64,000 bases of DNA from Haliotis rubra (lineage: Eukaryota), in contig NW_025765059.1 of assembly GCF_003918875.1 (NCBI RefSeq), forward strand, positions 1,922,001 to 1,986,000. Direction: 5' to 3'. Within the stretch, counting starts at the first letter, position 1. The number at the start of each line of letters is the position of its first letter. Below the pieces are notes generated by a model. That model did not search any database. It was not told the origin of the DNA and worked only from the letters and a program-made list of their open reading frames with translations. Made by a program: the position numbers and the translations under genes. Positions 20,748 through 64,000 of this stretch are shown piece after piece.

Positions 20748-21768
20748 TCATAGGCCAAGAGAAAGTGAAACTTTCATCCTTTGCTCCCAAACTATCTTTT
20801 ATATACCCGTCTTTAGCTTTTTCGCTTCTCCATCGTCCGTGACGTTTAAACATTCGATCTGGTAATCCGTTATTTGCAGCCGCCGTTGCTCCACCACTGC
20901 GCAAGCTATGCAAACCATACTGTTTTATGTTATCAACATAAGGACGTAAAGCATCAATGAATATCTCTCTTAATCTTGTATATGAGATAGGAACATTTCC
21001 TTTCCTGATGATATATCCAGAAGCACATTTTGTCAGACCTCTAAAAATATACTGATCCGAATCAGACTCAATCGCAGCCATATCAAGATAACGTTCTAAA
21101 CAAGCTACTGGACAAAGCTTTGTTTGTGTACGACCTATAACAACCCATGCACCATCTCTGTAAATGTCAGTCTTTGATTTTTCAATGAAAACAAGCATAT
21201 GAGATTGACAAAATACAACATCAGAACGTGATATATACAATAACTCGGCTGATCGCAAAAATCCTGCATAAGCCAATAAACACATTGAAAGCAATCTAAG
21301 CTCAGGTAACCCAGCTCCTTGTATTTTGTCATCATACAAGCGTTCAAGAATAGCTACCGTGATAGGTTCTTTCTTAACTACAGCTTCCAGCTTCCTCTTA
21401 GCTGCTTCCATGACACTCTTGACTAAACCGTTAGCAGTGGGACTCACAAGTCCTATACTTGAATGCGCATGGCGCAAGCTATAAAAAGCTGTCAACACAG
21501 GGGAAACAGTTTCACTTTGTTGAATTACTGATACCAAATATAATGCACAATGCAACGGCGATACAGGTAAATCAAAAGAAATCTCATTACATATCGCCCA
21601 CCTTTTCCAGGCAGCAAACCCGTACTGATACTTTCTGTTTGTCGAATCAGCTGCAGCTCCAGACAACATCGATGGGATATCATCAGCCAATGCTCTAACA
21701 CTATCTGGGAGATCACTCAACTCGTCCCTGTACACGTGCTGGAAAGCCTCTGTAAACACATACAGCAT
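20748..21768 (-). CDS. Tyrosine recombinase of the PAT/Ngaro-type element
   Basis: AGFLRSAEL (R), KSKTD (K), LHSLRSGG (HxxR), RHGRW, DGY (Y); apparent frameshift just before the natural stop. Confidence 0.92.
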
Positions 21769-21771
21769 AAA

Positions 21772-23700: not shown

Positions 23701-24488
23701 ATAGTCGTCAGTTAGTTTGTAAGAATTGATCTCAACATCAACACGATGAGCATACTTAACTGACAGATCTTGACTATTTGTTGACTGGAGTCGAGACTCC
23801 GCCTGTGACCACCGGGCTTTAGATGTACTGACGCTGTAGGGACAGTCTCGTCGGTAGTGCGAGAACTCACCGCAGGTGAAGCATGAACCTGACCTTTGAC
23901 TTTTTGCACGAAAAAGAGCAGGCTGGCTAGGCTGAAGAGCAGGAACAGGCTGCACAGCAAACTGTACGGGCCGAGCGACCGTCGACGAGCGGCGAGCTGA
24001 CCTAGATGTGGAGTACGGTGATTGGCGTGCACGCTTTTGACGAAGTTTCCTGACTGCCTTGTTTTCAGCCGAAGTAATCCTTTTGTCATCGTCAGAATCA
24101 TCAGCGAGATCATTAGCAACATAGTTTCTCACAGTTTCCCAGCCCCCTTCACTAGAATCCGCAATTTTGATGTGCTTATTTCTTTTCTGGACACTTTCTA
24201 TCGCTGACGTCAGAACCGTCTCAGCCTCTTCATAACGTTGATTCTGAATCGACAAAAGAACTGTATTCAAAGAATCTACTGTCTCACTGTTGAAATTGTA
24301 CTTTGTATTTTATTTCCTTCCCTTGACCACGTATAATCCTTTTCAGCTTTGAGTTTCTTCAAATCAGTAGAAGCTTGACTAAACTCTTGTCGTAAAGCAC
24401 CGAGCTGGGAGTTAAAGGATTCTTCCAGTTGATCTTTATTAGCATTCAGCTGTTTCAAGATGGCGTCTAATTTGGCGTCTGTGTCCAT
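23596..24488 (-). pseudogene. Gag-like ORF1 with CCHC zinc knuckle (frameshift near 24300)
   Basis: KRNKHIKIADSSEGGWETV...DDSDDDKRI and CFTCGEFSHYRRDC. Confidence 0.85.
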
Positions 24489-27600: not shown

Positions 27601-28156
27601 TCTTGACTATTTGTTGACTGGGGTCGAGACTCCGCCTGTGACCACCGAGGCTTTAGATGTACTGACGCTGTAGGGACAGTCTCGTCGGTAGTGCGAGAAC
27701 TCACCGCAGGTGAAGCATGAACCTGACCTTTGACTTTTTGCACGAAAAAGGAGCAGGCTGGCTAGGCTGAAGAGCAGGAACAGGCTGCACAGCAAACTGT
27801 ACGGGCCGAGCGACCGTCGACGAGCGGCGAGCTGACCTAGATGTGGAGTACGGTGATTGGCGTGCACGCTTTTGACGAAGTTTCCTGACTGCCTTGTTTT
27901 CAGCCGAAGTAATCCTTTTGTCATCGTCAGAATCATCAGCGAGATCATTAGCAACATAGTTTCTCACAGTTTCCCAGCCCCCTTCACTAGAATCCGCAAT
28001 TTTGATGTGCTTATTTCTTTTCTGGACACTTTCTATCGCTGACGTCAGAACCGTCTCAGCCTCTTCATAACGTTGATTCTGAATCGACAAAAGAACTGTA
28101 TTCAAAGAATCTACTGTCTCACTGTTGAAATTGTACTGTATTTTATTTCCTTCCCT
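24671..28156 (-). mobile_element. Second, partial copy of the same YR retrotransposon
   Basis: Near-identical to 20840-24323 with many extra indels; lacks the YR 3' end, gag N-terminus and terminal repeats. Confidence 0.9.
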
Positions 28157-28890
28157 AGTTTATAAGTTATCTCAAACAGTTATCAGAAAAGGATAAAACA
28201 TTGAATTGACCCTCCTATAATGCTTCAAAGAAATAATTGGTTGCATGATCATAAATCATTCGTAAAAGGTGTTTGAGTACCTACGTGAGGCAGCTAGTTT
28301 GCGGGATCTGGACTTTTCTCCTCGAACAATTCAACTGGATTTCTAGATTTTACATAATGAATATTTTACATTACTTACGGTAACATGGATTAGCAAATAG
28401 CGCATTGCCGGGAGAGTCACATTCGCACGATCACTCAACTATGTCCATTGCCGGTTAAGCCACACCATTTTCAACTCTGTTTTTCTTAAATGTGGCTTTC
28501 CCGTAGCTCATTGCCAATATAGATCTACATCCGCGGCAAACACAAAGCGTGGGGTGAGGTGTGTGTCAGGGTATGTTATGTTAACCTTATGTGGTTACAG
28601 AGTAATACAGACTACCTGGCCTAAAATTCACACCTGATAAATCCACTTAAGTCACCAGAAGCCAAGCATTGTGTATGGCGATTATATCATGTCTAGACGT
28701 TGCCAGTTGGATCACTGAGGTGGGAATATTACCATCTTTGTCGTTTTTTGCTATAATCACTGCTCTTGTATAAGCTGCCTCTTAATTTGTACTGCCATAC
28801 TATTTTGCACAGATGGCACCATTGTATATTGGTTTGTGAACTTATTTAATTCTAGAATACTATTGTCAATTACAGCATTTTTTGCTGTTT

Positions 28891-36403: not shown

Positions 36404-36465
36404 ATTGTCCTGTAGGCCTCCTTGAAACTGGCCGCATCACTGGCCCAGTACACCGTCTCTCTCTT
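36404..36465 (-). CDS. SH2-myosin, candidate small exon
   Basis: GC-rich island, tagcag| acceptor and |gtattt donor; KRETVYWASDAASFKEAYRT(M). Confidence 0.35.
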
Positions 36466-38500
36466 CTGCTACAACACTTAAACACTTTAGGCCTGTAAGT
36501 AACTAGCACCACCAATTTCCCATTACACCATGAGGCTCTAATCTGCTACAACACTTAAACACTTTAGGCCTGTAATTAACCAGCACCACCACTGGCCCAT
36601 TACACCATGAGGATCCTACAACATTAAACACCTGTAATTAACCAGCAGAGGATCTAATCTGCTACAACACTTAAACACTTTAGGCCTGTAAGTAACTAGC
36701 ACCACCAATTTCCCATTACACCATGAGGCTCTAATCTGCTACAACACTTAAACAGTTTATACCTGTAATTAACCAGCACCACCACTGGCCCATTACACCA
36801 TGAGGATCTAATCTGCTACAACACTTAAACAGTTTAGGCCTGTAAGTAACTAGCACCACCACTGGCCCATTACACCATGAGGATCTAATCTGCTACAACA
36901 CTTAAACACTTTAGGCCTGTAAGTAACTAGCACCACCACTGGCCCATTACACCATGAGGCTCTAATCTGCTACAACACTTAAACAGTTTAGGCCTGTAAG
37001 TAACTATAGTACTGTCGGAAATAGAAAAAAACTGTTTTGAGGCTGTTACTCTGTATCCCTAAAATTTACACAATTACAAATAGCATATTTCGAAATAACC
37101 CACTTCGGCCTAACTGGGCATTCAGTGGGATGCGTAATAGGATATCCAGAAAAGCATGTTTACTCATAAAATCGGGCAAAACTTATAAAAAATACGAATA
37201 GCTGCTGAAAACAATAGATCAGACCATAGATGGCAATTAGGTTGCTCAGCCAGGTATGACGACAGACCGTTGACTCACCTGGCATGAAATGCACATGCTG
37301 CCTACAGGCACAAGGGGTCATCTCAAAGATATTTTGTGCGTTTTTATGTGTGTTTACTATGTCTCATCTACTGATTAACATCTTACGTGTCTTTCTTTCA
37401 TAAAGTTTATGTTGAGATATGTAAGAGAGTATGATACCCGAAAACCATAGAAACGCATCGTAGTATATAGGTGGCATGACCACCCGAAGATCGACAGGAC
37501 TGGATATTATTTGTAAATTGTTATGACGTGCCGTGTACCTCCCCAGTATGATTGCCCTAAAGGATTATCTTATCTTAGCTGATATCTCTATCCCCAAGCC
37601 CGATCCCAGGTTTTGCTTTTGAGGCGACCCCTCCTATCTGTTTCTTTTTATAGTGACAGTGAGACTGCATGGTAGCTACATCCTTAATAGTTTCGGCATA
37701 AAAGTTATTATTTTTTACGTCAGCTATCGTTTATAATGAATCTACGTCTTATTTCAAATTGGGCATTTAAAAAGTGTCCTTTGTAATACAATATCGTCGC
37801 ACACTAATTTGCATAAAGCCATGGTCTGTTCCAAATAAGTCTTTGCTTATTTCTGTACTAATTTCCCCTCAGTAAAGTCCTTTTTCTCCGTTTCCTATCT
37901 CCCTACCACTGAGACTGTCGTAAGGCCGAACTTAGTTTAACAGATATTTCACACTTTTACATATCAACTACATAAATTGTAGAGATAAATCAGAAAATAC
38001 AGTTTTTTTCTATTTCCGACAGTACTATAGCACCACCACTGGCCCATTACACCATGAGGCTCTAATCTGCTACAACACTTAAACACTTTAGACCTGTAAT
38101 TAACCAGCACCACCACTGGCCCATTACACCATGAGGCTCTAATCTGCTACAACACTTAAACACTTTAGACCTGTAAGTAACAAGCACCACCACTGGCCCA
38201 TTACACCATGAGGCTCTAATCTGCTACAACACTTAAACACTTTAGACCTGTAAGTAACAAGCACCACCACTGGCCCATTACACCATGAGGCTCTAATCTG
38301 CTACAACACTTAAACACTTTAGACCTGTAAGTAACAAGCACCACCACTGGCCCATTACACCATGAGGCTCTAATCTGCTACCACCACTGGCCCATTACAC
38401 CATGAGGCTCTAATCTGCTACAACACTTAAACACTTTAGACCTGTAAGTAACTAGCACCACTGGTCCAGTACACCGTAAGGCTCCTCTGCTACAAGACTT
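36438..38500. repeat. 77-bp minisatellite (interrupted by a TIR element)
   Basis: Unit ctgctacaacacttaaacactttaggcctgtaagtaactagcaccaccactggcccattacaccatgaggctctaat; period 77 (36466 to 36543). Confidence 0.92.
37007..38027. mobile_element. Non-autonomous TIR element, TA TSD
   Basis: 28-bp TIR tagtactgtcggaaatagaaaaaaactg; inserted at the TA of a minisatellite unit (taac-ta-gcacc). Confidence 0.88.
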
Positions 38501-43019: not shown

Positions 43020-46000
43020 ACACTATCATAGTACTACATAGGCCTCCATTGCAATACCATCATACTACATAGGCCTCCATCACACTACCATCATACTACA
43101 TAGGCCTCCATTGCAATACCATCATATTACACAGGCCTCCAACACACCACTGTCGTATGACATGGGCCTCCATCACACAACCATCATATTACATAGGTCT
43201 CCATCACACTACCATCATATTACATAGGCCTCCATCACACAACTATCATATTACACAGGCCTCCAACACACCACTGTCGTATGACATGGGCCTCCATCAC
43301 ACAACCATCATATTACATAGGCCTCCATCACACAACCATCATATTACATAGGCCTCCATCACACTACCATCATATTACATAGGCCTCCATCACACAACTA
43401 TCATATTATATAGGCCTCCATCACACTACCATTGTATTACATAGGCCTCCATCACACTACCATTGTATTACATAGGCCTCCATCACACATCATTGTATTA
43501 CATAGGCCTCCATCATACCATTGTATTACATAGGCCTCCATCACACTACCATTGTATTGACATAGGGCCTCCATCACACTACCATCATATTACATAGGCC
43601 TCCATCACACTACCATCATATTACATAGGCCTCCATCACACAACTATCATATTATATAGGCCTCCATCACACCATTGCCTTGTTACATAGGCCTCCCTCC
43701 ATCACACAACCATCATATCACACAGGCCTCCATCCACAAACCATCATATGACATAGGTCTCCATCACACAACCATCATATATTACACAGGCCTCCATCAC
43801 ACAACCATCATATCATATCACACAGGCCTCATATGACATCAGGTCTTCATCACATCATATTACATAGGCCTCCATCACACAACCATCATATGACATAGGC
43901 CTCCATTGCAATACCATCATATTACACAGGCCTCCATCACACCACTGTCTTATGACATGGGCCTCCATCACACAACCATCATATTACATAGGCCTCCATC
44001 ACACAACCATCATATTACATAGGCCTCCATCACACAACCATCATATTACATAGGCCTCCATCACACAACAACCATTACATATTCACACAACCATCATATT
44101 ACATAGGCCTCCATCACACTACCATCATATTACATAGGCCTCCATCACACAACCATCATATTACATAGGCCTCCATCCACACACTACATAGGCATCACAC
44201 AACCATTGTATTACATAGGCCTCCATCACACTACCATTGTATTACATAGGCCTCCATCACACTACCATTGTATTACATAGGCCTCCATCACACTACCATC
44301 ATATTACATAGGCCTCCATCACACAACTATCATATTATATAGGCCTCCATCACACCATTGCCTTGTTACATAGGCCTCCATCACACAACCATCATATCAC
44401 ACACGCCTCCATCACACAACCATCATATCACACAGGCCTCTATCACACAACCATCATATGACATAGGTCTCCATCACACAACCATCATATTACACAGGCC
44501 TCCATCACACAACCATCATATCACACAGGCCTCTATCACACAACCATCATATGACATAGGTCTCCATCACACAACCATCATATGACATAGGTCTCCATCA
44601 CACAACCATCATATGACATAGGCCTCCATTGCAATACCATCATATTACACAGGCCTCCAACACACCACTGTCGTATGACATGGGCCTCCATCACACAACC
44701 ATCATATTACATAGGTCTCCATCACACAACTATCATATTACATAGGCCTCCATCACACAACTATCATATTACACAGGCCTCCAACACACCACTGTCGTAT
44801 GACATGGGCCTCCATCACACAACCATCATATTACATAGGTCTCCATCACACAACCATCATATTACATAGGCCTCCATCACACTACCATCATATTACATAG
44901 GCCTCCATCACACAACTATCATATTATATAGGCCTCCATCACACTACCATTGTATTACATAGGCCTCCATCACACTACCATTGTATTACATAGGCCTCCA
45001 TCACACTACCATTGTATTACATAGGCCTCCATCACACTACCATTGTATTACATAGGCCTCCATCACACTACCATTGTATTACATAGGCCTCCATCACACT
45101 ACCATCATATTACATAGGCCTCCATCACACAACTATCATATTATATAGGCCTCCATCACACCATTGCCTTGTTACATAGGCCTCCATCACACAACCATCA
45201 TATCACACACGCCTCCATCACACAACCATCATATCACACAGGCCTCTATCACACAACCATCATATGACATAGGTCTCCATCACACAACCATCATATTACA
45301 CAGGCCTCCATCACACAACCATCATATCACACAGGCCTCTATCACACAACCATCATATGACATAGGTCTCCATCACACAACCATCATATGACATAGGTCT
45401 CCATCACACAACCATCATATGACATAGGCCTCCATCACACAACTATCATATTACATAGGCCTCCATCAAACTGCAATCGTATTACACAGGCCTCCATCAC
45501 ACAACCATCATATGACATAGGCCTCCATCACACAACCATCATATGACATAGGCCTCCATCACACAACTATCATATTACATAGGCCTCCATCAAACTGCAA
45601 TCGTATTACATAGGCCTCCATCACACAACCATCATATTACATAGGCCTCCATCACACAGCCATCATACCACACAGGCCTCCATCACACAACCATCATATT
45701 ACACAGGCCTCCATCACACAACCATCATATTACACAGGCCTCTATCACACAACCATCATATTACACAGGCCTCCATCATCATATTACACAGGCCTCCATC
45801 ACACAACCATCATATTACACAGGCCTCCATCACACAACCATCATATTACACAGGCCTCCATCACACAACCATCATATTACACAGGCCTCCATCACACATC
45901 CATCATATGACATAGGCCTCCATCACACAACTTTCATATTACATAGGCATCCATCACACTACCATTGTATTACATAGGCCTCCATCACACTACCATTGTA

Positions 46001-46200
46001 TTACATAGGCCTCCATCACACTACCATCGTATTACATAGGCCTCCATCACACAACTATCATGTTACATAGGCCTCCATCACACCATTGTCTTGCTACATG
46101 GGCCTCCATCATACTACCATCATATTACATGGGCCTCCATTGCACTACCATCAGATTACATGGCCTTCCTTGACATTATTATCACATTACATAGGCCTTC
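43020..46200. repeat. 31-bp satellite, about 100 units, intronic
   Basis: Unit ggcctccatcacacaaccatcatattacata. Confidence 0.95.
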
Positions 46201-46275
46201 AACACATTATTATCAAATTACAAATTTGGTTGTACATATATTATGTAGAATAGTTGTTAAGCAAAGAGTACTTAC

Positions 46276-47958: not shown

Positions 47959-48129
47959 CTGAAACACAAATATGAAAGTCATAAAAGCATCTTGGGACCT
48001 CCATCTCAGGGACTATAAATACCTCTGTTGAGTTATAAGGAACCAATGCTATGCATAGGATATTCCCAACCTTTTAACAAAATGATACTCCACACCAACT
48101 GTACAATAGATTTATACTCGACATCTACC

Positions 48130-50677
48130 GTACAACAAAGTTATATTCCACATGTACCTTACAACAGAGTTATATTCCACACGTACCTTACAACAGAGTT
48201 ATATTCCACACGTACCTTACAACAGAGTTATATTCCACACCTACCTTACAACAGAGTTATATTCCACACCTACCTTACAACAGAGTTATATTCCACACCT
48301 ACCTTACAACAGAGTTATACTCCACACATACCTTACAACAGAGTTATATTCCACACCTACCTTACAACAGAGTTATATTCCACACCTACCTTACAACAGA
48401 GTTATATTCCACACCTACCTTACAACAGAGTTATATTCCACACCTACCTTACAACAGAGTTATATTCCACACGTACCTTACAACAGAGTTATATTCCACA
48501 CGCATTGCCTTACAACAGAGTTATACTCCACACATACCTTACAACAGAGTTATATTCCACACCTACCTTACAACAGAGTTATATTCCACACCTACCTTAC
48601 AACAGAGTTATATTCCACACCTACCTTACAACAGAGTTATACTCCACACATACCCACAACAGAGCTATAATCCTTACAACAGAGTTATATTCCACACCTA
48701 CCTTACAACAGAGTTATATTCCACACCTACCTTACAACAGAGTTATATTCCACACCTACCTTACAACAGAATTATATTCCACACCTACTTTACAACAGAG
48801 TTATATTCCACAACTACTTTACAACAGAGTTATACTCCATACGTACCTTACAACAGAGTATACTCCACACCTACCTTACAACAGAGTTATACTCCACACC
48901 AACCTTACAACAGAGTTATACTCCACACATACCTTACAACAGAGTTATACTCCACACCTACCTTACAACAGAGTTATACTCCACACCAACCTTACAACAG
49001 AGTTATACTCCACACATACCTTACAACAGAGTTATACTCCACACCAACCTTACAACAGAGTTATACTCCACACATACCTTACAACAGAGTTATACTCCAC
49101 ACATACCTTACAACAGAGTTATACTCCACACCTACCTTACAACAGAGTTATACTCCACACCTAACCTTACAACAGAGTTATAATTCACACATACCTTACA
49201 ACAGAGTTATACTCCACACCTACCTTACAACAGAGTTATACTCCACACATACCTTACAACAGAGTTATACTCCACACCAACCTTACAACAGAGTTATACT
49301 CCACACCTACCTTACAACAGAGTTATACTCCACACCAACCTTACAACAGAGTTATACTCCACACATACCTTACAACAGAGTTATACTCCACACATACCTT
49401 ACAACAGAGTTATACTCCACACCTACCTTACAACAGAGTTATACTCCATAATTGCACCTTACAACAGAGTTATACTCCCACACCAACCTTAGCAACAGAG
49501 TTATACTCCACACGCACCTTACAACAGAGTTATATTCCACACCAACCTTAGAACAGAGTTATATTTCACACCAACCTTACAACAGAGTTATACTCCACTC
49601 GTACCTTACAACAGAGTTATACTCCACACGTACCTTACAACAGAGTTATACTCCACACCAACCTTACAACAGAGTTATACTCCACACCTACCTTACAACA
49701 GAGTTATACTCCACACCTACCTTACAACAGAGTTATACTCCACACCAACCTTACAACAGAGTTATACTCCACACCTACCTTACAACAGAGTTATACTCCA
49801 CACCAACCTTACAACAGAGTTATACTCCACACATACCTTACAACAGAGTTATATTCCACACCTACCTTACAACAGAGTTATACTCCACACCTACCTTACA
49901 ACAGAGTTATACTCCACACCTACCTTACAACAGAGTTATACTCCACACCAACCTTACAACAGAGTTATACTCCACACATACCTTACAACAGAGTTATACT
50001 CCACACATACCTTACAACAGAGTTATACTCCACACCTACCTTACAACAGAGTTATACTCCATACGTACCTTACAACAGAGTTATACTCCACACCAACCTT
50101 ACAACAGAGTTATACTCCACACGTACCTTACAACAGAGTTATATTCCACACCAACCTTAGAACAGAGTTATATTTCACACCAACCTTACAACAGAGTTAT
50201 ACTCCACACCTACCTTACAACAGAGTTATACTCCACACCAACCTTAGAACAGAGTTATATTTCACACCAACCTTACAACAGAGTTATACTCCACTCATAC
50301 CTTACAACAGAGTTATACTCCATACGTACCTTACAACAGAGTTATACTCCACACCTACCTTACAACAGAGTTATACTCCACACCAACCTTACAACAGAGT
50401 TATACTCCACACGTACCTTACAACAGAGTTATACTCCACACATACCTTACAACAGAGTTATACTCCACACCAACCTTACAACAGAGTTATACTCCACACC
50501 AAACTTACAACAGAGTTATACTCCACACCAACCTTACAACAGAGTTATACTCCACACCTACCTTACAACAGAGTTATATTCCACACGTACCTTACAACAG
50601 AGTTATATTCCACACCTACCTTACAACAGAGTTATATTCCACACCTACCTTACAACAGAGTTATATTCCACACCCAC
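48130..50677. repeat. 29-bp satellite, about 88 units, starting at a myosin 5' splice site
   Basis: Unit cttacaacagagttata(c/t)tccacac(c/a/g)(t/a)ac. Confidence 0.95.
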
Positions 50678-50842
50678 CTTTTGGTTTGTTGACATCCTCC
50701 TGTCTAATACGCTCATGGTTCAGGCTGCACGTCACACACAGCTGCTCAATCTGCTGAAGAAGGCCCTCCACCAGACGGCGCTGTTCTACCGCTGCCTGAC
50801 GTAGACGAGCAGCATGGCGACGTGCAACAAACCCTCGTGCGA
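50678..50842 (-). CDS. SH2-myosin exon (IQ motif, neck)
   Basis: LARGFVARRHAARLRQ...; with the previous exon it forms LQKLARGFVAR (IQxxxRGxxxR). Confidence 0.88.
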
Positions 50843-51881: not shown

Positions 51882-52063
51882 CTACCGACACAAGGGTTCA
51901 CATGTGATGTACACTATAGTAACTCTTGTCAAGATTACACAATATCCTCCACTTTTATTTTGTTTATTAATGGCAAAATATTTTAATAAGGCCTTCACAG
52001 AAAAAATGAGATAGAAAATAAGTATGTTAAGCGTTGTCATGAAAAAGAGATAGGTCAGCATAC

Positions 52064-52149
52064 TTGTCAACAAATTCCTGGAACATAGGCCTCACTGCAA
52101 AGCCCTCCCTTCGGATCTTGGTAGTCTCCAACATGCCAGTGTACAGAAG
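52064..52149 (-). CDS. Myosin motor exon (SH1-helix region)
   Basis: LLYTGMLETTKIRREGFAVRPMFQEFVDK, matching myosin QLRYxGxLExxRIRRxGY. Confidence 0.93.
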
Positions 52150-52179
52150 CTACAACATGCACAGCAGATGCATCACCAC

Positions 52180-52429
52180 NNNNNNNNNNNNNNNNNNNNN
52201 NNNNNNNNNNNNNNNNNNNNNNNNNNNNNNNNNNNNNNNNNNNNNNNNNNNNNNNNNNNNNNNNNNNNNNNNNNNNNNNNNNNNNNNNNNNNNNNNNNNN
52301 NNNNNNNNNNNNNNNNNNNNNNNNNNNNNNNNNNNNNNNNNNNNNNNNNNNNNNNNNNNNNNNNNNNNNNNNNNNNNNNNNNNNNNNNNNNNNNNNNNNN
52401 NNNNNNNNNNNNNNNNNNNNNNNNNNNNN
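52180..52429. other. Assembly gap (250 N)
   Basis: Run of N. Confidence 1.
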
Positions 52430-52803
52430 TTCACTCGCATATTCGGTGAATCGAACTGTAGCTCTTCATGAATTCAATTTGTTATTCATGGTCACCAGAA
52501 CCGAATATTAACGAATATTTACGATTTTTTTAAGGGAGCATGTTTTACTTGAACCCTTATGTCCTTTTCCTAACTGAGATATGCAAGAATGGAACATGTA
52601 CTAGTGTTGCAGTAGTGCAAGTCAAGTTAGTTTGCCAAGACTGCACATGGTACTGTCGATTATAACTATTACATACCAAATTTGAGTGTCATGAGATCAC
52701 TGGTTATTGCTGTGACAAATCAAACTGTCAACACGGGCGTTCCATATCAATCACTTAACTACAATATTGTATTCATGAATCATTATTCGTATTCGTTACC
52801 CAA

Positions 52804-52932
52804 TGATGAATAGGAAAGGAGAGATCAGCATCAAAAATATGAGCTTCTGATTGGTTGATTAAGGTGGGACGGATGGGACGTGAATCTGATTGGTCAATCC
52901 TACCTGTCTCGATGACGTCACGCTAAAAATAG
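52804..52932 (+). repeat. Left TIR of the Polinton-like element
   Basis: tgatgaataggaaaggagagatcagcat...tgacgtcacgctaaaaatag, inverse of 62319-62447. Confidence 0.93.
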
Positions 52933-53970
52933 TTTGTTTGGTATTTCAAATTGCTGTCACAGAACCGGATTAAAATCCTGCCATATCAAATGAAGTACAT
53001 AATAGTTTTGTTAGTTGGTTAAATCCTTGATGAGATATTCACATATCTATTGAAAACAAAATACTCATTCATGTAGATCTATGAACTGAGATGAAGTATT
53101 CAGTCACTGTGAAATTCAGGTGACCTCATACAGCGAGGGTACCAATAAGGTCACACAGTGAGAGCTATGCACAGCAGTTCCATTTACAAGCTCCTATCAG
53201 TTTTCCTATTAAGTTTCTCAACCGGTAGTTAACTATAACATCATTGTTTACACATATGTACACAAGTAGTCACACTTATATTTCACTCTTTCCAAAAAGT
53301 GTGGACAAAATAAGATTGTGAGGGGAGGGAGAAAGAAAATCACGTAATATGGGAAATTCCCATGCTTTAAATAGTTGACAGTTACACCTCGAAACTTGTC
53401 GTGTCTGGAATCAACCGGTACAACTATGACGTCACGTTTAAGGTCATTGTAGTTCAAATGTATAACCAGGGAAAGCTGAGCGCTATTTTTCGTATCTTCA
53501 TTAACTTTTCACAATCTTATTACACACAATTTAGTAAAGTAAATATTGACAACAGTTATAAGTGAGGTTCTATGTTTTGGATTAAAATCATTCAAACATT
53601 TACATAGCAGCTCCTACAATACTGAAAGTGTTGGAATAAACTGGTGCTAACCGCTTATGTAAGAGTGTATAAATAGTGATTTTAAATTCCGCTGTTGTCG
53701 GATGAGACAGACGAGTGTTCCAACTGCGTGTCACACCCCAGGTAAAGATTAACCACAAAACACCTTTACATGTTAACATAAATGAAATGCTAAGATAAAT
53801 TTATAAGTATTTAACTGCACTTGTTTCCCATAACTAGAGAGCACATGAGAAATAGTTCCCAGTTTAGTCAACTTCACATATATCAAATGCCTTTTGTGCA
53901 GAAGAAATTGCATAAAATATTTTATGTATAAAGGACATTTTACTAGATTTATATTACCCTTAATTTTAGA

Positions 53971-56900
53971 ATGGCAAGCAACATGGATTAACAGAACTTT
54001 TGAACACGGTGCGATCGGTTGAAAACCTTGAGGAATGGGCTAAAGCTAACAATTGTGAAGATGACCAAGAAGTAGCCTTGAAACGAATTCAGTTGTTGGC
54101 GCTAGATTTGTCATCGCAACTATCATCAACAGTACAAAAGAAGCATGTTGAGAACAGATGTAATGAGTGTGGTAAAGACTTTAACAGCGACAGCACCTAA
54201 TGAGACATATCCGGACGGTTCATGGAAATCAACGATTCACTTGTGAGCAATGCAACCACAGCTTTACACGACGGGAGAATTTCAACACTCACCGCTGTCG
54301 AAGAAAGTCTAGAGATGTCAGCGAGACTCCCAAACGACGATGCTTACATCCCGTGAACACAGACGACAACACATCTCAAGCCCGTTACGCTACATGCAAC
54401 TAGTGTGGACACTACAAGTGCCTATTACCTGGCAAGGCCTTTTGTGAAAGATGCTCACACAAAGGTCCCGAGTGTAAGCTGTGTCACCGACCTATGCCTG
54501 AGAGGTTTTACTCTCAGCGAGTAGACCAGTGTGACAGTTGTTTTCGCAGACGGGAGCGCTATCAAGAGAGGTCAAGAAATCAGGTCGGTGGCGGACGAGT
54601 GGAGGCTCTTGAGGGGTTGGTCTCCACAACAACTCTCACTCCCAGTGAAGGCAGTTTCTCGCAGACGAGAAAACAAATATTGAATCATTATTGCATGATT
54701 TCTTCTTAGAGATGAAAGGTTTGAAATGGTTTCTGGTGTTGAAAGTGAAATATATAAAATATGATGAAAATAATGATAGCACTTTGGCAGAACCTGTGAT
54801 GAGAAGCACGAATTTTATCCTTACAAATCTCTCTGAAAAAGAAGAACAGATTGCAGAGGCCTATCAAACACTGTACATCGCTACTCAGGAATTTCAGGCA
54901 GAAGGTAGTGGGTGGATATTGGATAACATTGTACATTTAGAAGTGAACATGGCCGAGTATACTCCCTTAGCAGCCAGCAGTTACATTCCCCTGTCCAATT
55001 ATCTGAAGGATAAGAAGGCAATTTTGAATATTAAGAACGAGGATTAAAGATGTTTTGTGTGGTCAGTGTTAGCAGCCCTACATCCTGTTGACCGGAAACA
55101 AAATGCAAACAGAGTCAACAAGTATGTTCAGTTTGAAAAGGACTTGAATCTAGAGGGAATTGACATGCCCATGCCACTGTCACAAATTCACAAATTTGAA
55201 GAGCAAAATGGCATTTCAGTAAATGTTTTTGGCTATGAGGGTGATAATGATGGGGTTTTCCCTCTCCATGTTAGCAAGTGTAACTTTTCAAAAGAAGTAG
55301 ATTTACTATTGCTAAGTGCAGGGGAAAAGAGACACTATTGTTTGATAAGGAATTTCAGTCGGTTGATGGGAGATAGGACAAAACATAACGGAAAAACATT
55401 CTATTGTAAACACTGTCTTCATGGCTTCAGTAGACAAAATTTGCTTGATAATCATAAACTTTATTGTTATACCCATGGTCTGCAGAAAGTTAGATTACCA
55501 GACAGTGAAGATGAGAAGTGGGTTAAATTTAAAAGTCTACAGAAGCAGCTAAAGGTTCCGTTTGTAATCTATGCTGATTTCGAATCCATTACCAGAAAAG
55601 TTAGCAGCTGTCAACCCAATCCAAACACATCACATACTACAGTCTATCAACAGCATGAGCCTTCAGGATTCTGTTACAAGGTTGTATGTTCAAACCCTGA
55701 CTATTACAAACCAGCTGTAGTTTACAGGGGCCCCAATGTTATTCAAAACTTCATTGAATGTTTACTCGAGGAAGAGAAGCATATTACACAATTGTTAGAT
55801 CAGGAAGTACCAATGATAATCACTGATGATGAAGAGCAAGCATTTCAGGATGCCAAGGTGTGTCACATTTGTCATACACCTTTCGGTCCAAAGTCTGTCA
55901 AAACGAGAGATCATTGTCATATATCAGGGAGATTTAGGGGTGCTGCCCATCAAAAATGTAATCTTAATTACAAGTTCAAACAAGTAACAGACAAAGAAAC
56001 CAACCAGAACAAATACTTTCTTCCTGTCATCTTTCACAATCTTAAGGGTTATGACTCCCATCTCATCATGCAAAAGCTGGATAAATCCATCAAGTAAAAA
56101 CTACAATGTTTGGCTAACAACATGGAAAAGTACATCTCATTCTCTGTTGGCAATCTGAGGTTTATCGACTCAATTCAGTTTCTAAATACATCTCTAGAAA
56201 CATTGGTAGACAATTTGAAAGCTGAAGGTTCTTCCAAATTTAAGAATCTAAAACATGAGTTTTTGGATCAGCAACAATTTCATCATCTCTTAAGAAAGGG
56301 AATATATCCGTATGATTTCATGGATGATGAATCCAAGTTTGAGATGAATTTTCTTCCTTCCAAAGAAGAATTTTACAATGTTCTGAGTGACAGCCCCATT
56401 TCAGACAGTGATTATGTCCATGCACAACAGGTATGGTCCACTTTTGGTCTTAAAACAATGGGTGACTATCATGATTTATACATGAAAACGGATGTCTTAT
56501 TGTTGGCAGATGTTTTTGAGAATTTTAGGAATATGGCTTTAGAATACTATCACTTAGACCCTGCCCATTATTACACGCTGCCAGGTTTGGGTTGGGATGC
56601 TATGCTGAAGATGGGAAATGTAGAACTAGAGCTGCTCACTGACTTAGACATGCATCTCATGATAGAACAAGGACTTAGGGGTGGCATATCTATGATTTCC
56701 ACAAAATATGCAGAGGCTAACAATCCTTATCTGAAAAAGGATTTCAGACCTAGTGAACCCTACTCTTATATCATGTACTGGGATGCTAATAATTTGTATG
56801 GTCATGCCATGTCCCAGCCATTGCCTGAGCGAGACTTCCAATGGATGACTCCAGATGACATTGACAGGCTAAACATACAGAGCATCCCTCACGATTCTAA

Positions 56901-57998
56901 AACTGGATATATTTTGGAGGTTGACCTAAAGTATCCACACGAGTTGCACGACAGTCACAATGACTATCCCTTAGCCCCAGAGTCCATTACAGTAACAAAA
57001 GACATGCTTTTCCTCGTTCCCTGGAGTTAAGAGAGAAGCTCTGTATCAAGGGGAAACCTGTTAGGAAGTTAGTCCCAAATCTGTATGATAAACAAAAATA
57101 TGTTGTACACTACAGGAACCTGCAGTTCTATTTGAATCAGGGACTAAAACTGACCAAAATTCATCGAGTAATTCAATTCCAACAGTCCCCATGGTTACGA
57201 CCTTACATTCTTTTTAATACCGAGAAACGGAAACAGGCTAAGAATGAAGCAGAGAAGGCTTTCTTCAAGTTATGTAACAATTCATGTTTTGGCAGATCCA
57301 TGATGAATGTGAGGAAGCATGTTAATGTTGAATTGGTCAGTTCATCTAAAAGACTGAGAAAGCTTTGTGCTAAACCTACTTTTGAAGCCTTTAAAATTTG
57401 TAATCCTGATCTGGCAGCTGTACACCTGAAACGAGCAAGCCTGTTCCTAAATCAACCTCTGTATGCAGGCTTTTCGATACTGGATCTCTCAAAGATAGTG
57501 ATGTATGATTTTCACTATAATTTTATCCATAAACACTATGGAGAAAAGGCCCACTTGTGTTTTACTGACACAGACTCAATGTGTTATCAAATTGAGACTG
57601 AAGAACTGTATGCTGATATGGCCAAGCATTTCGATTTGTTTGACACCAGCAACTACAACCCCTCCCACCCCCTATATTCTGTACAAAATGCCAAAGTTTA
57701 AAGACGAAGTTGGAGGCTGTGTTCTTGAACAGTTTGTTGGATTGCGACCAAAAATGTACTCTCTTATGTATGATGGAAAAGAAAAGCAGACTGCCAAGGA
57801 AGTATCCAAAACCGTGATAAAGAAGCAACTTAGACATTCAATGTACAAACAATGCCTCTTTGACGAGGTACAATATAGACACACTATGCATAGTATTCAG
57901 AGCAAAAACCACCAGCTGTACAGCGTAGCTGTGAATAAAATTAGTCTGAGTTGCTTTGATGACAAAAGATATGTTTTATAGGATCAATGCAATTCATA
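53971..57998 (+). pseudogene. Protein-primed DNA polymerase B (Polinton type), disrupted
   Basis: ExoI YADFES, ExoII FHNLKGYD, ExoIII LYMKTDV, PolA YWDANNLYGHAM, PolB KLCNNSCFG, PolC FTDTDS, DDKRY; N-terminal C2H2 fingers; in-frame stops (55045, 56095, 57979) and frameshifts. Confidence 0.95.
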
Positions 57999-58000
57999 TA

Positions 58001-58150
58001 CAGTGGAAGCTGTCTAACATAGCAGCTATACAATCCAGCAAGTTTTCTAAACTGACATAAAATATTAGTTCCATCCGTGACTAGCACATTTATCATCATT
58101 TAAAAGCTGTTTATTCTGGCAGCCATTCATTACGGATTTTGCCATCAAAT
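58001..58150 (+). mobile_element. One-ended Tc1/pogo-like MITE fragment truncating PolB
   Basis: ta|cagtggaagctgtctaa resembles the end of the 35188 MITE; no matching right end found. Confidence 0.5.
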
Positions 58151-58508
58151 GAGGCAACTAAAAGTGTGTTTTGTAATTAGAGTTTTTCACTTATATCTAT
58201 TATGGCAACGGGAAAGCTCGCATCACCAATATGGTTTGTGGTTTGGGATGCGGTGAAACCTGTGAGTGTTAGCTGGAACAAGCTAACCATGAGTGACATT
58301 GCAATGATTCTCAATAAAGCATTGCACTCTTCCCAAGAAGAAAAACTCAACTAGTTGAAGCTATTTACACTCTTTATTACAAATACACAAATACATGTTG
58401 ATCGTCACATGCCTCAAATTAAACTGCATACAGATTAATGCATTAACAAGCTATTCACATTCTACTACATAATATTAGCATTATGATCAGCTCGTAGAAA
58501 AACAAAGT

Positions 58509-59177
58509 TTATAGTTCATCATCTGATTGTTCATCATCTGACTGTTCATCCACAGACTTGTCATCAAAGTCTACATCTTCAGCCTGGCCCGAGTCCACAT
58601 GAGAGAGAATATCTTTCACGACAGGTTTCATCCACTGTCCAATTTTCGCATCAATGTCTTTGGGGTTCATGTCAGGGTCCAGGTCTGTGATTTTCTCCAA
58701 TACAGGCTTGAAAAGGGGACCATATCCGAAATAGCTGGCATAACGGATGGCTATCGCAAGTCTGTCAAGAAACATAGTTTCCCAGCATTTCCTCAATTTC
58801 TTCTCAATCAATCTTTCACTCTTTCCTTTATCCTCAAGGTCCTCCTTTTTTTTCCTTATGTCCTCCTTGCAGGCTTTCAACGTTTGTTCCCACATGTATT
58901 CAATGCCTTTCACTTCTCTCTCTTGATCAACCATAGTACCTTTTTTCACTGGACGCAGGATATCATTCTTAGTATCATCAGGTGCATCCACCTTAGCTCG
59001 CTTCTGCAGAGGCTCCCCACCATTTTCAGGGCACCAGGTCCTCACATGACGTTGAAGGTCATGGTTGTTTTCAAATACAATATCGCATTCATCACAGGAA
59101 GGCATGTTTTCGTCTTCCGAGGGTACAGTAGTCTCAACCAGCTTGGAGATGTTATCTCTGTGTGTGTCTGGAGTCAA
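58509..59177 (-). CDS. Polinton hypothetical protein with zinc-finger-like motif and acidic tail (possibly the C-terminal part of the ATPase gene)
   Basis: CDECDIVFENNHDLQRHVRTWC, charged helical region, DEQSD repeats. Confidence 0.65.
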   Translation of the reverse strand: MTPDTHRDNISKLVETTVPSEDENMPSCDECDIVFENNHDLQRHVRTWCPENGGEPLQKRAKVDAPDDTKNDILRPVKKGTMVDQEREVKGIEYMWEQTLKACKEDIRKKKEDLEDKGKSERLIEKKLRKCWETMFLDRLAIAIRYASYFGYGPLFKPVLEKITDLDPDMNPKDIDAKIGQWMKPVVKDILSHVDSGQAEDVDFDDKSVDEQSDDEQSDDEL

Positions 59178-59323
59178 ATGATAAGGTGGCTCAGGTTGTT
59201 CCTCTTTTATAGATGTGCCCCCTGTCTCAAAGTGTCTTGATTTTGGTGGTGGGGGGGGGTTGAAACATGTCGTTTTGCTATCTCTGGGACCGGGGGTATG
59301 TCAGCTTTTGTAACATTAGGTTG

Positions 59324-59947
59324 TCATCTCTCAGATTCAAGGCTTGTAGGTTGTAGGTCGATAGTCAGATTGCCATAAGGTTTTTGAACAGCTGTCTCAT
59401 ACACTGACATAAACCTATCAGCATTGTTGGGGTAGATATGTCTGGCAAACAATTGGACCTGAAGTCTATCCATTGGGGAATTAAAAAGGGTCACATAGTG
59501 AGAATTCAGAGCAATGTCACGTGACTCTTTCCCTCGTGGAAACAGATTCTGTAACAGTAGGAAGATAATGACATTCTTATGATGAGAGGTTCGGGTAAAT
59601 AGCTGCGAGATGCGTTTGTCATCCTTGGCTTCAGACATCAAGTCATCCAACACAATCATGTTGTTGTTTCTGGCATCCAAGTAGGTGTCGTCAAGTACAT
59701 TGTAAGGAATTCCTTTCACAAACGTCACATGGGGTAACTGTTCACAGATCACCTGGTACAGGGGCTGCCATTGAGTATAGCACCAGATAATGTGATTAGG
59801 TGTTGGCTGTATACATCCTTGCATGAGAAGGTTGTATACAAACATCGATTTGCCACTGCCAGTAGGACCCACAACGACTGAATTAGAGGGGATGGTAAAC
59901 TTGAAATGTTTAGGCATTAAGTGTGACTGCAGCAGTGGCTGCAAATA

Positions 59948-59983
<36 letters not shown>

Positions 59984-60280
59984 GCTGCTGCTGCTGCTGG
60001 GAATATGCTGCTGCTGCTGCTGCTGCTGCTGGGAATATTGCTGCTGCTGCTGCTGGGAATATCGCTGCTGCTGCTGCTGCTGGAATATTGCTGCTGCTGC
60101 TGCTGGGAATATTGCTGCTGCTGCTGCTGTGAATATTGCTGCTGCTGCTGCTGGGAATATTGCTGCTGCTTGTCATACTCCTTGTGTTTATTACGCCTAT
60201 GTCTGCTGCTAAGAATATTGCTGCTGGCCAGGTATAAGTCATGAAGGTATAAGTATTGGAACAGAGAGAACAACCATACA
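59324..60280 (-). pseudogene. A32/FtsK-like DNA packaging ATPase with polyQ N-terminus (frameshifted in the repeat)
   Basis: Walker A GPTGSGKS, Walker B MIVLDD, RTSHHKNVIIFLLLQN motif; upstream QQQYSQQQ repeats. Confidence 0.85.
59941..60170 (-). repeat. (CAG)n-CAATATTCC compound coding repeat
   Basis: Units of (ctg)n ggaatattg on +; reads YSQQQQQQ on -. Confidence 0.92.
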
Positions 60281-60337
60281 TGTTGTCACGTCAGCAGTTT
60301 GATTCCAACTGTGATCATGTCATAAAATGGATGCTCT

Positions 60338-61480
60338 TTATACCCACCAAAAAGACTGTAGATCTGCCTCGGGGATCCAGCTGTTGAATTTCTTGGGATA
60401 ACCCATCCATTTGACATACACCTCTTTTCTACCAGTTCTCTTCCTCTTCTTCAAGACTTTGTCAACACGCCACATGGTGTCTGCAGACTTATAAACTTTC
60501 TGAAGTTCATTTGCATAAAAGGTACCAGTGATCGGATCCTCAGCCATATCCTTGACTTTGTAGACTGGTATCCCATCCCTATAATATCGTCTGCTAATAA
60601 TGAATATTTCCTCTGTCCATTTCTCCTGATAGTCGCGTTGAAAGGCATGTCTCAAATGTGACAGTCGTACCTGATCCCCTACTTTGAATTTAAAGGCTTT
60701 CCGTCTGCTTTCATTCACCTTCTCTGCTTTGGGTTTGACTTGTTTGTGCAGTGGATCAATGTACTGTTGTTTCCAAACGACTGATTCATTTTTGACATCA
60801 ATATCAGCTGGTGATCTTTCATTTAGCGATCTGTGGGGTCTCTGGTTATAATCATTCACCAAGTCTTGTAAAATGTCAAGATAACGATACGTTTGTTTGA
60901 AAGTAAAATATCTATACATAGTCGTCTTGAGTGTTCGTATTACTCTCTCGGCATAAGAAGCCTTGGTTTCATTCTGTGTGACATAGTAGGTGATACCCTT
61001 CTTTGCTAAATATGATCTCACTTTCTTGTTATCAAATTCACGACCTTTGTCAGATCGTATAATGTGTGGTAGAGTAGCACGAGCAAATATCTTCTTCATG
61101 GCTTTAATAATGACATCTGGAGTTTTATTTTGGAGAGGCTCCACCCACAGAAATCGTGTAAATACGTTAATAGCTATCAATAAGTATTTTACACCATCAT
61201 TGTCTGAGGCTATGTTAGATACATCAGCCAAGTCAATATCCCACCGGTCATTCAAACCAGTTGAGACCACTCTGTTCTGCTTAAACTTGTATCTAAGAGG
61301 TCGTTGAAGTGAATAGGCATCTTGAGAAGCGAGCCACTTTTTGATGTGATGTAAGCTGATATCAAATTTCCCTTCCTTTTTCACCATGTGATATAACTTA
61401 GTTGAGCCCACGAAGGAGGCTGGGTGTTTGGAATTAAAGTAAATGCTGGACAAATACTCTTCCCATCCTTCCACGGGCAT
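60338..61480 (-). CDS. Retroviral-type (rve) integrase with C-terminal chromodomain, intact 380 aa
   Basis: YFNSKHPASF N-terminus; DIDLAD / SDKGREF / AERVIRTLK (D,D,E); VDKVLKKR...YVKWMGYPKKFNSWIPEADL chromodomain. Confidence 0.95.
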   Translation of the reverse strand: MPVEGWEEYLSSIYFNSKHPASFVGSTKLYHMVKKEGKFDISLHHIKKWLASQDAYSLQRPLRYKFKQNRVVSTGLNDRWDIDLADVSNIASDNDGVKYLLIAINVFTRFLWVEPLQNKTPDVIIKAMKKIFARATLPHIIRSDKGREFDNKKVRSYLAKKGITYYVTQNETKASYAERVIRTLKTTMYRYFTFKQTYRYLDILQDLVNDYNQRPHRSLNERSPADIDVKNESVVWKQQYIDPLHKQVKPKAEKVNESRRKAFKFKVGDQVRLSHLRHAFQRDYQEKWTEEIFIISRRYYRDGIPVYKVKDMAEDPITGTFYANELQKVYKSADTMWRVDKVLKKRKRTGRKEVYVKWMGYPKKFNSWIPEADLQSFWWV

Positions 61481-62318
61481 GGTTGTAGGAGGAATGTCAT
61501 TAAAGTAAACAGAGTCTAGCTTTTATATGTGTAGGCAGTGTACACACAACAGTTGTCTCGACTCGTTCTGTATGGTCTACTTTTCATTTCACTGTAAAAG
61601 GTCCCCTGACACGTACTATCTATGAAGTTAGCAACATAAGGTTGTAATACCTGAATGGTCATTTATACCCCACTGCTTTCAACATCTACTTTAGTGAAAA
61701 CAAATACACGGGGCTTACTAATGTACTGTTCGGGGTTTCCCCAGTCAAACACAACCTTTTTTTAAACATGCAGGCATCTATTTTTAGCGTGATGTCCATA
61801 CCAATGAAAGCAGCACCATGAACGAAACAAATATTAAAGCAATGGGAAGGAGTGGTAAGTCAGTTTACATGTACAGAGATGACTTTAAATGAACATTGTT
61901 TTGCTGTAAACACGCCTTACTATAAACTCATCCAACCAGACGATTCAAACCACATGTGAATACAGAGTATATTCATTTTAACGCGTCGAGGCGAGATGGT
62001 TTAATTTCACCAATGTATTTCTCAGGGGCTGCGTTATAGTGAAGACTGCAGCATTCGCAGAACTCCCGTACACTTCGTGTCTCGCTATGTGACCCACTTT
62101 TCCCCTTCACTGTAACAGGTCACTAAAAGTGCACCGTGAATGACTACAACATTTCAATACACAGATCTTCTTTTAATTAGCACTTTGTTTACAATATTTA
62201 CTTAAGTGAATATCACATAGTGGCTTTAATGACAAGTTAACGAAGGTATTATGAAGTCCAATGGATAGCGCGGGGTTTCCCACTGCTCATGACACTACCG
62301 TTTTAAATTCAAAGATAT

Positions 62319-62447
62319 CTATTTTTAGCGTGACGTCATCGAGGCAGGTAAGACTAACCAATCAGATTCACATCCCATCCGTTCCACCTTAATCAACCAA
62401 TCAGAAGCTCGTATATTTTATGCTGATCTCTCCTTTCCTATTCATCA
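62319..62447 (-). repeat. Right TIR of the Polinton-like element
   Basis: ...atgctgatctctcctttcctattcatca followed by TSD acccaa. Confidence 0.93.
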
Positions 62448-62872
62448 ACCCAATATTCATGATACGTATCATATTCACCACATAGTGTATTCGCTGCAGC
62501 CCTAATACATACATAAAATGTATACATACTAATATTTGTATAGCACCAATATCCAGCTCAGCTGCAAAGGTGCTTTGCTTTCCCCTCGATCATTGGATGC
62601 CAATCTCAACAGCACATCATATTTTCAATCTCAACTCCCTGGGGATCATAAAACTCTTGCAGCCATTATCGCTACATCACATGCATCGCTACAAGACTTG
62701 CATCATAACCATATGTACAATACTCATGACACTACATGCAGCTGGTACTGAGAGTTGGAAGGATGACATGCACCATGTAAATATGAACAAGTGTTTGCCA
62801 CTGATATGGCAATGTCCCCCGCAGCTAAAGAATGGAATATCTATATTTACTACTTTTTATTTTTGGGTCACA

Positions 62873-63798
62873 TACAAGATGCCTGAAATGACTGGTGTCT
62901 GCATAATCACCCAATGTAGGCTGTCAACATACTTGAAACATTGGGTGCAATGTTTTATGAGATATCCGCTTTAAAAAGCGGTCAAAGTATCGTGGTGACC
63001 TTGAAGATAAGGTCAAGGTCACCCAAATAAACTGGTGTCTGCGTAATCCCCCAATGTAGGCTGTCACCAAATTTGAAGACACTGGGTACAACAGTCCATC
63101 AGATATCATGTTAACAACAGTTTGAAAAGTGGTTAGTGTCATGGTGACCTTGAAAATAAGGTCAAGGTCACGCAAATCGACTGGTGTCTGCGTAATCCCC
63201 CAATGTAGGCTGACACCAAATTCGAAGACATTGGGTACAACAGTTCATGAGATATCGCGTGAACAAGAGTTGGAAAAGTGGTCAAAGTGTAGTGGTGACC
63301 TTGAAAATAAGGTCAAGGTCACGTAAATCGACTGGTGTCTGCGTAATCCCCCAATGTAGGCTGACACCAAATTTGAAGACATTGGGTACAACAGTTCATG
63401 AGATATCGCGTGAACAAGGGTTGGAAAAGTGGTCAAAGTGTCGTGGTGACCTTGAAAATAAGGTCAAGGTCACGTAAATCGACTGGTGTCTGCGTAATCC
63501 CCCAATGTAGGCTGACACCAAATTCGAAGACATTGGGTACAACAGTTCATGAGATATCGCGTGAACAAGAGTTGGAAAAGTGGTCAAAGTGTAGTGGTGA
63601 CCTTGAAAATAAGGTCAAGGTCACGTAAATCGACTGGTGTCTGCGTAATCCCCCAATGTAGGCTGACACCAAATTCGAAGACATTGGGTACAACAGTTCA
63701 TGAGATACCGCGTTAACAAGAATCGGGACGTACGTACGTACGGACGGACGCTGCTGAATACATAGTCCCCCGTTTCTCGCTGCGGCGGGGGACAATAA
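62873..63798 (+). mobile_element. Helentron/HINE-type non-autonomous element with 151-bp tandem array
   Basis: acaag start, about 5.5 units containing gtgaccttg..aaggtcaaggtcac, (acgt/acgg)n microsatellite, 3' hairpin gtcccccg/cgggggac then aataa. Confidence 0.75.
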
Positions 63799-64000
63799 CC
63801 GCCAAATGTACAACACAGGCATAACCATCACAGTCGTGGTGGATCGCAACAGCAAATAATTACTACAACATGCTTAATACAGCACATGCATTGTCGAAAC
63901 ACATGCACAACTACAACATTTGCACAGTACATGCATCACAACAAATCAATCATCACATCTCCTGCAAATCATTGCTACAACATACATAACTATAATGCAT

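Follow-up and report, generated by a model that had tools for sequence, protein, structure and literature searches.

Whether Polintons (Mavericks) are to be regarded as viruses, transposons or both is a question that rests largely on their conserved capsid genes. Described members carry inverted repeats of 100-1,500 bp and target duplications of 5-8 bp (10.1101/2023.08.22.554363), with 6 bp as the norm (PMC10045372), and the Mavericks of vertebrates end in the motifs (AGT)2, (AG)3 or (AC)3A, which have been tied to jump-back initiation (PMC8097293). The major capsid gene is missing in 13 of 72 Polintons, nine of which also lack the protease and ATPase genes; in P_Pd1.1 from the annelid Platynereis (10,777 bp) and P_Gi1.2 from Glomus (11,019 bp), the ATPase is kept and the major capsid, penton and protease genes are lost (PMC4028283, Table S1). 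The present analysis concerns a 64,000-nucleotide stretch of Haliotis rubra DNA (contig NW_025765059.1, positions 1,922,001 to 1,986,000; hereafter, the window), which contains a compact Polinton at 52804-62447 (9,644 bp, no N inside) with polymerase, integrase and packaging ATPase genes, no detectable capsid or protease gene, and termini of the form (TGA)2//(TCA)2.

This element is read as a fossil: a Polinton of compact, mollusc type, descended from a lineage that was already without the virion block when the insertion at this site took place. A probability of roughly one half is assigned to this reading. By analogy with described Polintons, the element's own protein-primed polymerase would have copied a linear form, with initiation inside TGA-TGA and a 3-nt jump-back; an rve-chromodomain integrase would have linked the CA-3' ends to host DNA at a 6-bp stagger, after which the inserted copy would have decayed neutrally. 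It is further conjectured that the loss of virion genes was lineage-wide, and that the lineage may have spread either as an intragenomic self-synthesizing transposon or packaged in trans in the capsids of complete Polintons. An initial annotation, made from the sequence alone, had posed a capsid-less lineage against a deletion derivative, and these proved to be the correct pair of alternatives.

Termini and target-site duplication

Two perfect copies of ACCCAA, at 52798-52803 and 62448-62453, lie flush with the ends of the element, with no gap on either side. Agreement of two random 6-mers drawn from the window has a probability of about 4.5e-4, and a 5-bp or shifted duplication was rejected. 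Each end reads 5'-TGATGAATAGG on its own strand, the element starting with TGATGA and closing with TCATCA-3', and the first 28 nt of the two arms are without difference. The outer arms, at 52804-52932 (+) and 62319-62447 (-), are identical at 120 of 129 nt (93%), seven of the nine mismatches being transitions. Beyond them, inverted homology continues over 243 aligned nt at 67.5% (score 139, against 39 for the best of 300 shuffles), occupying 52933-53170 (+) on the left and the inner part of the right repeat (62080-62447, -), so that each arm measures about 370 bp. The repeat is graded, identity dropping from 93% to 67% near base 129. The intact ends, the 6-bp duplication and the TGATGA...TCATCA termini reported initially are thereby borne out, and the 129-bp repeat described at that stage is the outer portion of a longer one. 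Repeats and duplication fall within the Polinton ranges given above, and both ends bear a short tandem repeat, as Polinton termini do. The left outer arm also holds what are presumably two CCAAT-type boxes and one TGACGTCA site, at computed positions. The right inner arm has a decayed tandem duplicate, the third copy in the element, at about 61490-61800 (69%, score 76 against 42 for the best shuffle), upstream of the integrase TATA box.

The motif (TGA)2 is the same kind of repeat as those of vertebrate Mavericks and would, by analogy, allow a 3-nt jump-back. No Polinton with (TGA)2//(TCA)2 ends was found in the accessible literature, coverage of which did not extend to Repbase, Dfam or the founding papers; neither the motif nor a compact mollusc class appears in the accessible portions of PMC8502044, PMC11131425, PMC3014272, PMC10294476, 10.1101/2022.07.12.499685 or 10.1101/2023.08.22.554363, nor did literature listings on capsid-less Polintons bring up either, and the motif may already be catalogued elsewhere. 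Ginger, IS3/IS481 and long terminal repeat (LTR) elements typically end in TG...CA (PMC2836005), so a CA-3' terminus suits an rve integrase; it is not required by the Polinton enzyme, since Polintons with AG...CT ends exist. The initial description of the ends stands: they are TG...CA, and (TGA)2 at both is a trinucleotide repeat that would suit priming by jump-back. Its generalization that Polintons usually start with AG applies to the (AGT)2 and (AG)3 types but not to (AC)3A, and Polinton ends vary.

Gene content and decay

Three genes are present: a family B DNA polymerase of the protein-primed kind (pPolB), an ATPase fused to zinc fingers (ZnF) and a helical region, and an integrase. The first two are pseudogenes, and only the chromodomain integrase remains open. 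Four open reading frames (ORFs) had originally been listed; the polymerase, ATPase and integrase are indeed there, and the supposedly separate ZnF ORF belongs to the ATPase gene.

The pPolB pseudogene (53971-57990, +, 3' end approximate) has about nine lesions, which the initial gene list did not mention: four in-frame stops (54401, 55045, 56095 and 57979) and about five frame changes (close to 53990, 54200, 54650-54700, 57000-57060 and 57698). It retains N-terminal C2H2 fingers (PF00096/PF13465), an endonuclease VII insert in the exonuclease (PF02945), exonuclease and palm motifs, and a PF03175 match on one fragment (E 8e-9). Cys/His motifs resembling vOTU occur at the position where PMC11161782 puts a vOTU protease, and a presumed terminal-protein region is placed by position only. 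The sequence is 41-50% identical to the intact 1,331-aa pPolB of a complete control Polinton, L001, and a fragment of it had no tblastn match among phage records. The polymerase may be of the Beta adintovirus, or group-1-like (pPolB1), type; that PF03175 matches weakly or not at all is in line with the "more divergent" Beta class, and 2,559 of 2,598 mollusc rows in Supplementary Table 3 of PMC10748475 are pPolB1.

On the opposite strand, the fusion gene (58509-60281, -) encodes a ZnF, a Gln-rich linker, an A32/FtsK-type packaging ATPase, a second linker, a second ZnF and a helical region, and is broken by a stop at 59324-59326 and several frame changes. Its homolog P0121 holds the whole fusion in a single 516-aa ORF, with 74% identity to the ATPase part and 41% to the ZnF ORF, so that the two form one gene and an unrelated fourth gene is rejected. 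Matches to PF02456, PF01580 and PF04665 are below or near cut-off, and Walker A and B motifs are found. A CAG/24-bp repeat tract (59938-60170) occupies a linker that is Pro-rich in P0121. In a tree of 140 ATPase domains, the element groups with P0121 and P0242 with support 1.0, in a tree that has neither named references nor labels for capsids.

The 3' part of the fusion gene contains an open 198-aa ZnF-helical ORF (58509-59105, -) with TATAAA 106 nt upstream. Fusions of this type are common: by a pattern-based count, the second finger occurs in 49 of 151 ATPase relatives, and in 29 of these 49 a methionine stands at most six residues before it, against 11% expected. TATAAA lies 44-106 nt ahead of all four inferred starts, there being 14 such sites in 9.6 kb on both strands. 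Judged from these sequence features, the tail may constitute a nested gene that has a promoter of its own and an internal start at 59105; a search of the ESM Atlas with it returned zinc-finger look-alikes only.

The integrase (60338-61480, -) is a 380-aa open ORF with a retrovirus-like rve core (PF00665) and a C-terminal chromodomain (PF00385), and its catalytic residues D83, D144 and E178 are invariant across 39 aligned sequences. Among the 120 matches listed, the nearest homologs are 85% and 73% identical, and the named animal homologs are all bivalve (48-55%), suggesting a mollusc-like host. The spacer between the convergent polymerase and fusion genes (57991-58508) carries AATAAA on both strands and a 50-aa ORF (58202-58354, +) with no homolog and no TATA box, for which the ESM Atlas gave no lead (best 0.78).

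If the arms were identical at insertion, each outer arm has since drifted by about 3.5%. The roughly 6.9 kb of coding DNA contain five in-frame stops (0.7/kb), and simulated decay of 2-3.5% gives 0.6-1.1/kb; the stop density thus fits the drift of the outer arms, and it is probable that insertion brought in three intact genes, which decayed later. The graded arms weaken the assumption that they were identical at insertion. A replicating element, one of the two alternatives first offered, does not describe this copy, which is dead because both pPolB and the ATPase gene are broken.

Absence of capsid and protease genes

Control loci were obtained by a genome scan that yielded three loci (L001-L003) from 34 pattern matches. 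A major capsid profile built from 120 homologs of the L001-type capsid gave 325 bits on the L002 control and at best -4.1 on the element, which hence lacks the major capsid that marks virion-forming Polintons (polintoviruses and adintoviruses). On slices of control capsids, the profile recovered 17 of 17 at 80 aa, 16 of 19 at 50 aa and 7 of 20 at 30 aa. The identity of the reference capsid is supported by a model of the L001 protein built from 91 sequences (pLDDT 87), which shows a double jelly-roll fold and in a fold search matched the capsids of Sputnik, PBCV-1 and mavirus (best E 9e-16, to Sputnik); a single-sequence fold of the control capsid reached pLDDT 31, and a PDB sequence search with it gave nothing significant.

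For the minor capsid, PZ and protease, tblastn between control loci gave E values of about 1e-12 to 5e-12, 6e-4 and about 1e-23 to 3e-23, respectively, and in the element no match below E 0.06; small profiles for the three proteins scored the element at shuffle level. Neither a minor capsid (penton) nor an adenain-like protease was therefore found with the few references available. The non-coding gaps of the element (800, 518, 56 and 599 bp) leave no room for a 1.3-kb capsid gene. Pfam, applied to 27 open and 18 read-through frames, found neither capsid nor protease, a result not counted as proof of capsid absence because the same search missed both control capsid proteins; it placed the control proteases at E 0.011 and 0.064. 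Except for very short remnants, the absence of the major capsid, minor capsid, PZ and protease is solid, and the original observation that the element has no capsid module or protease is upheld by profile, tblastn and fold-checked controls alike.

Relatives of the element

The complete Polinton L001 (654-10444) fits nine genes, all on the same strand, into about 9.8 kb. Their order runs integrase, minor capsid, PZ, major capsid, protease, ATPase, PW, pPolB, where minor capsid, PZ and PW are names assumed from position and resemblance. Its virion block (minor capsid, PZ, major capsid and protease) is contiguous, spans 2,738 bp and directly follows the integrase. L001 resembles the element in its pPolB layout, with C2H2 fingers and endonuclease VII, and in its integrase, which is 41% identical and has the same rve-chromodomain layout. 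It differs in having a stand-alone ATPase (32% identity), co-oriented genes and the virion block itself. L002 (1-4320) is a partial capsid-encoding Polinton with the same virion block and a PC4-like ORF after the integrase. Both loci come from bacterial genome bins of marine symbionts and are probably host animal DNA. No end-like sequence was found in L001-L003, scores being at shuffle level, and neither L001 nor L002 showed a long inverted repeat; the ends of L001 lie outside the locus.

Several gene models join parts of this gene set. pPolB is followed by the ZnF-ATPase in P0254, and the ZnF-ATPase by the integrase in P0323; in two others, a fusion-type ATPase is followed by protease (P0322) or PZ (P0367). 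P0002, the integrase homolog at 73%, and P0121, the ATPase fusion at 74%, are both on a contig of 3,539 nt, a shared contig being suggested by equal size only. If both genes lie on one such contig, about 0.9 kb is left, too little for a 1.3-kb capsid gene.

Origin of the compact form

Loss of the virion genes in the lineage, prior to insertion, is favored by the lack of any virion remnant, since a chance deletion would usually leave pieces. The probable integrity of all three genes at insertion, the same gene set in P_Pd1.1 and P_Gi1.2, and the short contig that P0002 and P0121 may share point in the same direction. A further hint comes from Supplementary Table 3 of PMC10748475, of which six parts with mollusc rows were covered (about 520 of 2,598 rows). 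Rows with an integrase score of at least 380 were kept (73 rows, none of them from two of the parts), a cut-off set after inspecting the data. In 20 of 64 pPolB1 rows, from 10 assemblies, the integrase lies 1,869-2,627 bp beyond the 3' end of pPolB, against 2,348 bp in the window; these rows include GCA_003918875.1_PolB1_4, GCA_003343065.1_PolB1_44 and GCA_003671525.1_PolB1_1, and 18 of the 20 have pPolB ORFs of at least 1,140 aa. The remaining rows gather around 4-5 kb, on one side or the other; the virion block of L001 measures 2.74 kb. The rows covered hint, in a way that can be tested, at a compact architecture recurring in molluscs. They were rejected as proof of a capsid-less class, the table having no integrase strand or capsid column. 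For assemblies GCA_003343065.1 and GCA_003918875.1, the same table also contains a large class with a low-scoring integrase (about 90-120) that abuts or overlaps the pPolB 3' end, a geometry unrelated to the element.

Several observations weigh against such a lineage. The order pPolB, ZnF-ATPase, integrase with capsid genes beyond the integrase would produce the same spacing, and the occurrence of fusion-type ATPases beside protease and PZ means that the fusion is no marker of capsid-less forms. No sister copy with both ends was found, the element being single within the 64-kb window. Among the 13 capsid-less Polintons, nine lost the ATPase too (PMC4028283). Virion-gene remnants shorter than about 30 aa would mostly escape detection, and the minor capsid, PZ and protease profiles were built from only two or three sequences. 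In addition, the resemblance of pPolB to its L001 counterpart fades out some 10 codons short of the latter's end, where either a deletion junction or a small indel may lie. A comparison by eye of integrase and capsid matches (120 each) for common contigs returned chromosome-sized ones only and was uninformative.

The strongest rival is a one-off deletion, in which a complete Polinton of about 12.4 kb, here or in the immediate parent, lost the 2.7-kb virion block in a single event; this is a serious contender, though held to fall short of even odds. The likeliest place for the break is the stretch that separates the 3' end of pPolB from the ATPase gene, and the TGA ends would then be a property of an ordinary capsid-encoding family. 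In its favor, L001 shares the polymerase architecture, has an integrase at 41% identity and carries its virion genes as one uninterrupted block of 2.74 kb, and 9.6 plus 2.7 kb is within the known Polinton size range. The ATPase is retained, and its relatives neighbor protease and PZ. The end of pPolB is unrecognizable and the spacer at 57991-58508 is a possible site of the loss; however, a glycine stands near the expected place in a shifted frame, so that a small indel explains this end equally, and AATAAA on both strands of the spacer is as in a natural convergent 3' region, although the signal is common by chance in AT-rich DNA. Degradation is common, affecting 96% of vertebrate Maverick loci (PMC8097293), yet a single deletion would have had to place both breakpoints at module edges and leave no detectable remnant.

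An assembly artefact, with the virion block collapsed or two copies mis-joined in a scaffolded assembly, is very improbable: a 250-N gap near the left end and the repeat tract inside the element would permit it, but the target duplications match, there is no internal N, and the gene with the repeat tract is colinear with P0121. That a Ginger-like cut-and-paste transposon captured Polinton genes is scarcely credible, for although TG...CA ends are the rule in Ginger, IS3 and IS481 and Ginger2 uses 6-bp targets, Ginger ends are TGTNR rather than TGATGA, the integrase shares 41% identity and the rve-chromodomain layout with its counterpart in the complete Polinton L001, and pPolB and the ATPase are of Polinton type.

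A bolder extension of lineage-wide loss would be that molluscs carry widespread, undescribed three-gene Polintons of about 9-10 kb, in which pPolB faces a ZnF-ATPase and an integrase, with TGA-TGA origins, retrovirus-like CA ends, autonomous replication and a packaging motor under selection for loading into the capsids of complete Polintons, and thus satellites of endogenous animal DNA viruses; at present this is unlikely.

Genomic setting

The 250-N assembly gap (52180-52429) ends 374 bp left of the element. Minisatellites occupy 36465-38381 (77-bp unit), 43035-46206 (31 bp), 48085-50680 (29 bp) and 62974-63721 (151 bp), the element lying between the 29-bp and 151-bp arrays, and such a repeat-rich site would suit chromodomain targeting. 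The window also contains a DIRS-type retroelement with reverse transcriptase, Dam-like methylase domain and tyrosine recombinase and, beside it, a partial second copy (20641-24309 and 26368-28159, -), as well as a broken Tc1/Tc3-type transposase (18481-19638, +). Rfam gave no matches over 52000-64000.

Significance and comparison with known systems

If the lineage reading is true, a group with polymerase, integrase and packaging ATPase but no capsids constitutes a natural test: animals would then support either purely intragenomic self-synthesizing transposition or the packaging of satellites by helpers. How an rve integrase and jump-back priming make use of the same terminal bases is a question to which a fourth end motif, ending in CA-3', is relevant. 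Screens requiring capsid genes (PMC11131425) or known end motifs (PMC8097293) would miss such elements. If the element is a one-off deletion, the end motif alone is new.

Ginger1/Ginger2, IS3/IS481 and LTR elements share with the element an rve-type integrase and TG...CA ends. Unlike it, they have no pPolB or ATPase, and their ends begin with TGT and carry no trinucleotide repeat; the TGTNR termini and single transposase with an H2C2 finger that define Ginger are replaced here by TGATGA ends and a pPolB and ATPase. The non-autonomous Polinton-1N1_DR and 2N1_DR are likewise shortened and without virion genes, but also lack the ATPase. Also close are P_Pd1.1 and P_Gi1.2, which, compared by table rows only, match in gene set and in a size of about 10-11 kb; each is known there from a single row rather than as a lineage that has been described. 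Polinton-6_NVi holds all four virion-related genes in 10,272 bp (PMC4028283), so full sets are known well below the size of about 15-20 kb initially given as usual for Polintons. With these precedents, size and gene set are not marks of an undescribed system, as had been proposed; what is new, within the accessible literature, is the end motif. Compared with the Polinton/Maverick superfamily at large, the element is without major and minor capsid, PZ, PW and protease, has 9.6 kb with two of three genes broken, and ends in (TGA)2//(TCA)2 rather than (AGT)2, (AG)3 or (AC)3A. It shares with that superfamily a pPolB with vOTU-like motifs, an rve integrase, an A32/FtsK ATPase, long inverted repeats, a 6-bp target duplication and a short tandem end motif, in agreement with its first description as Polinton-like. 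By polymerase, integrase, repeats and duplication it is a Polinton, and by the capsid test it is not a polintovirus.

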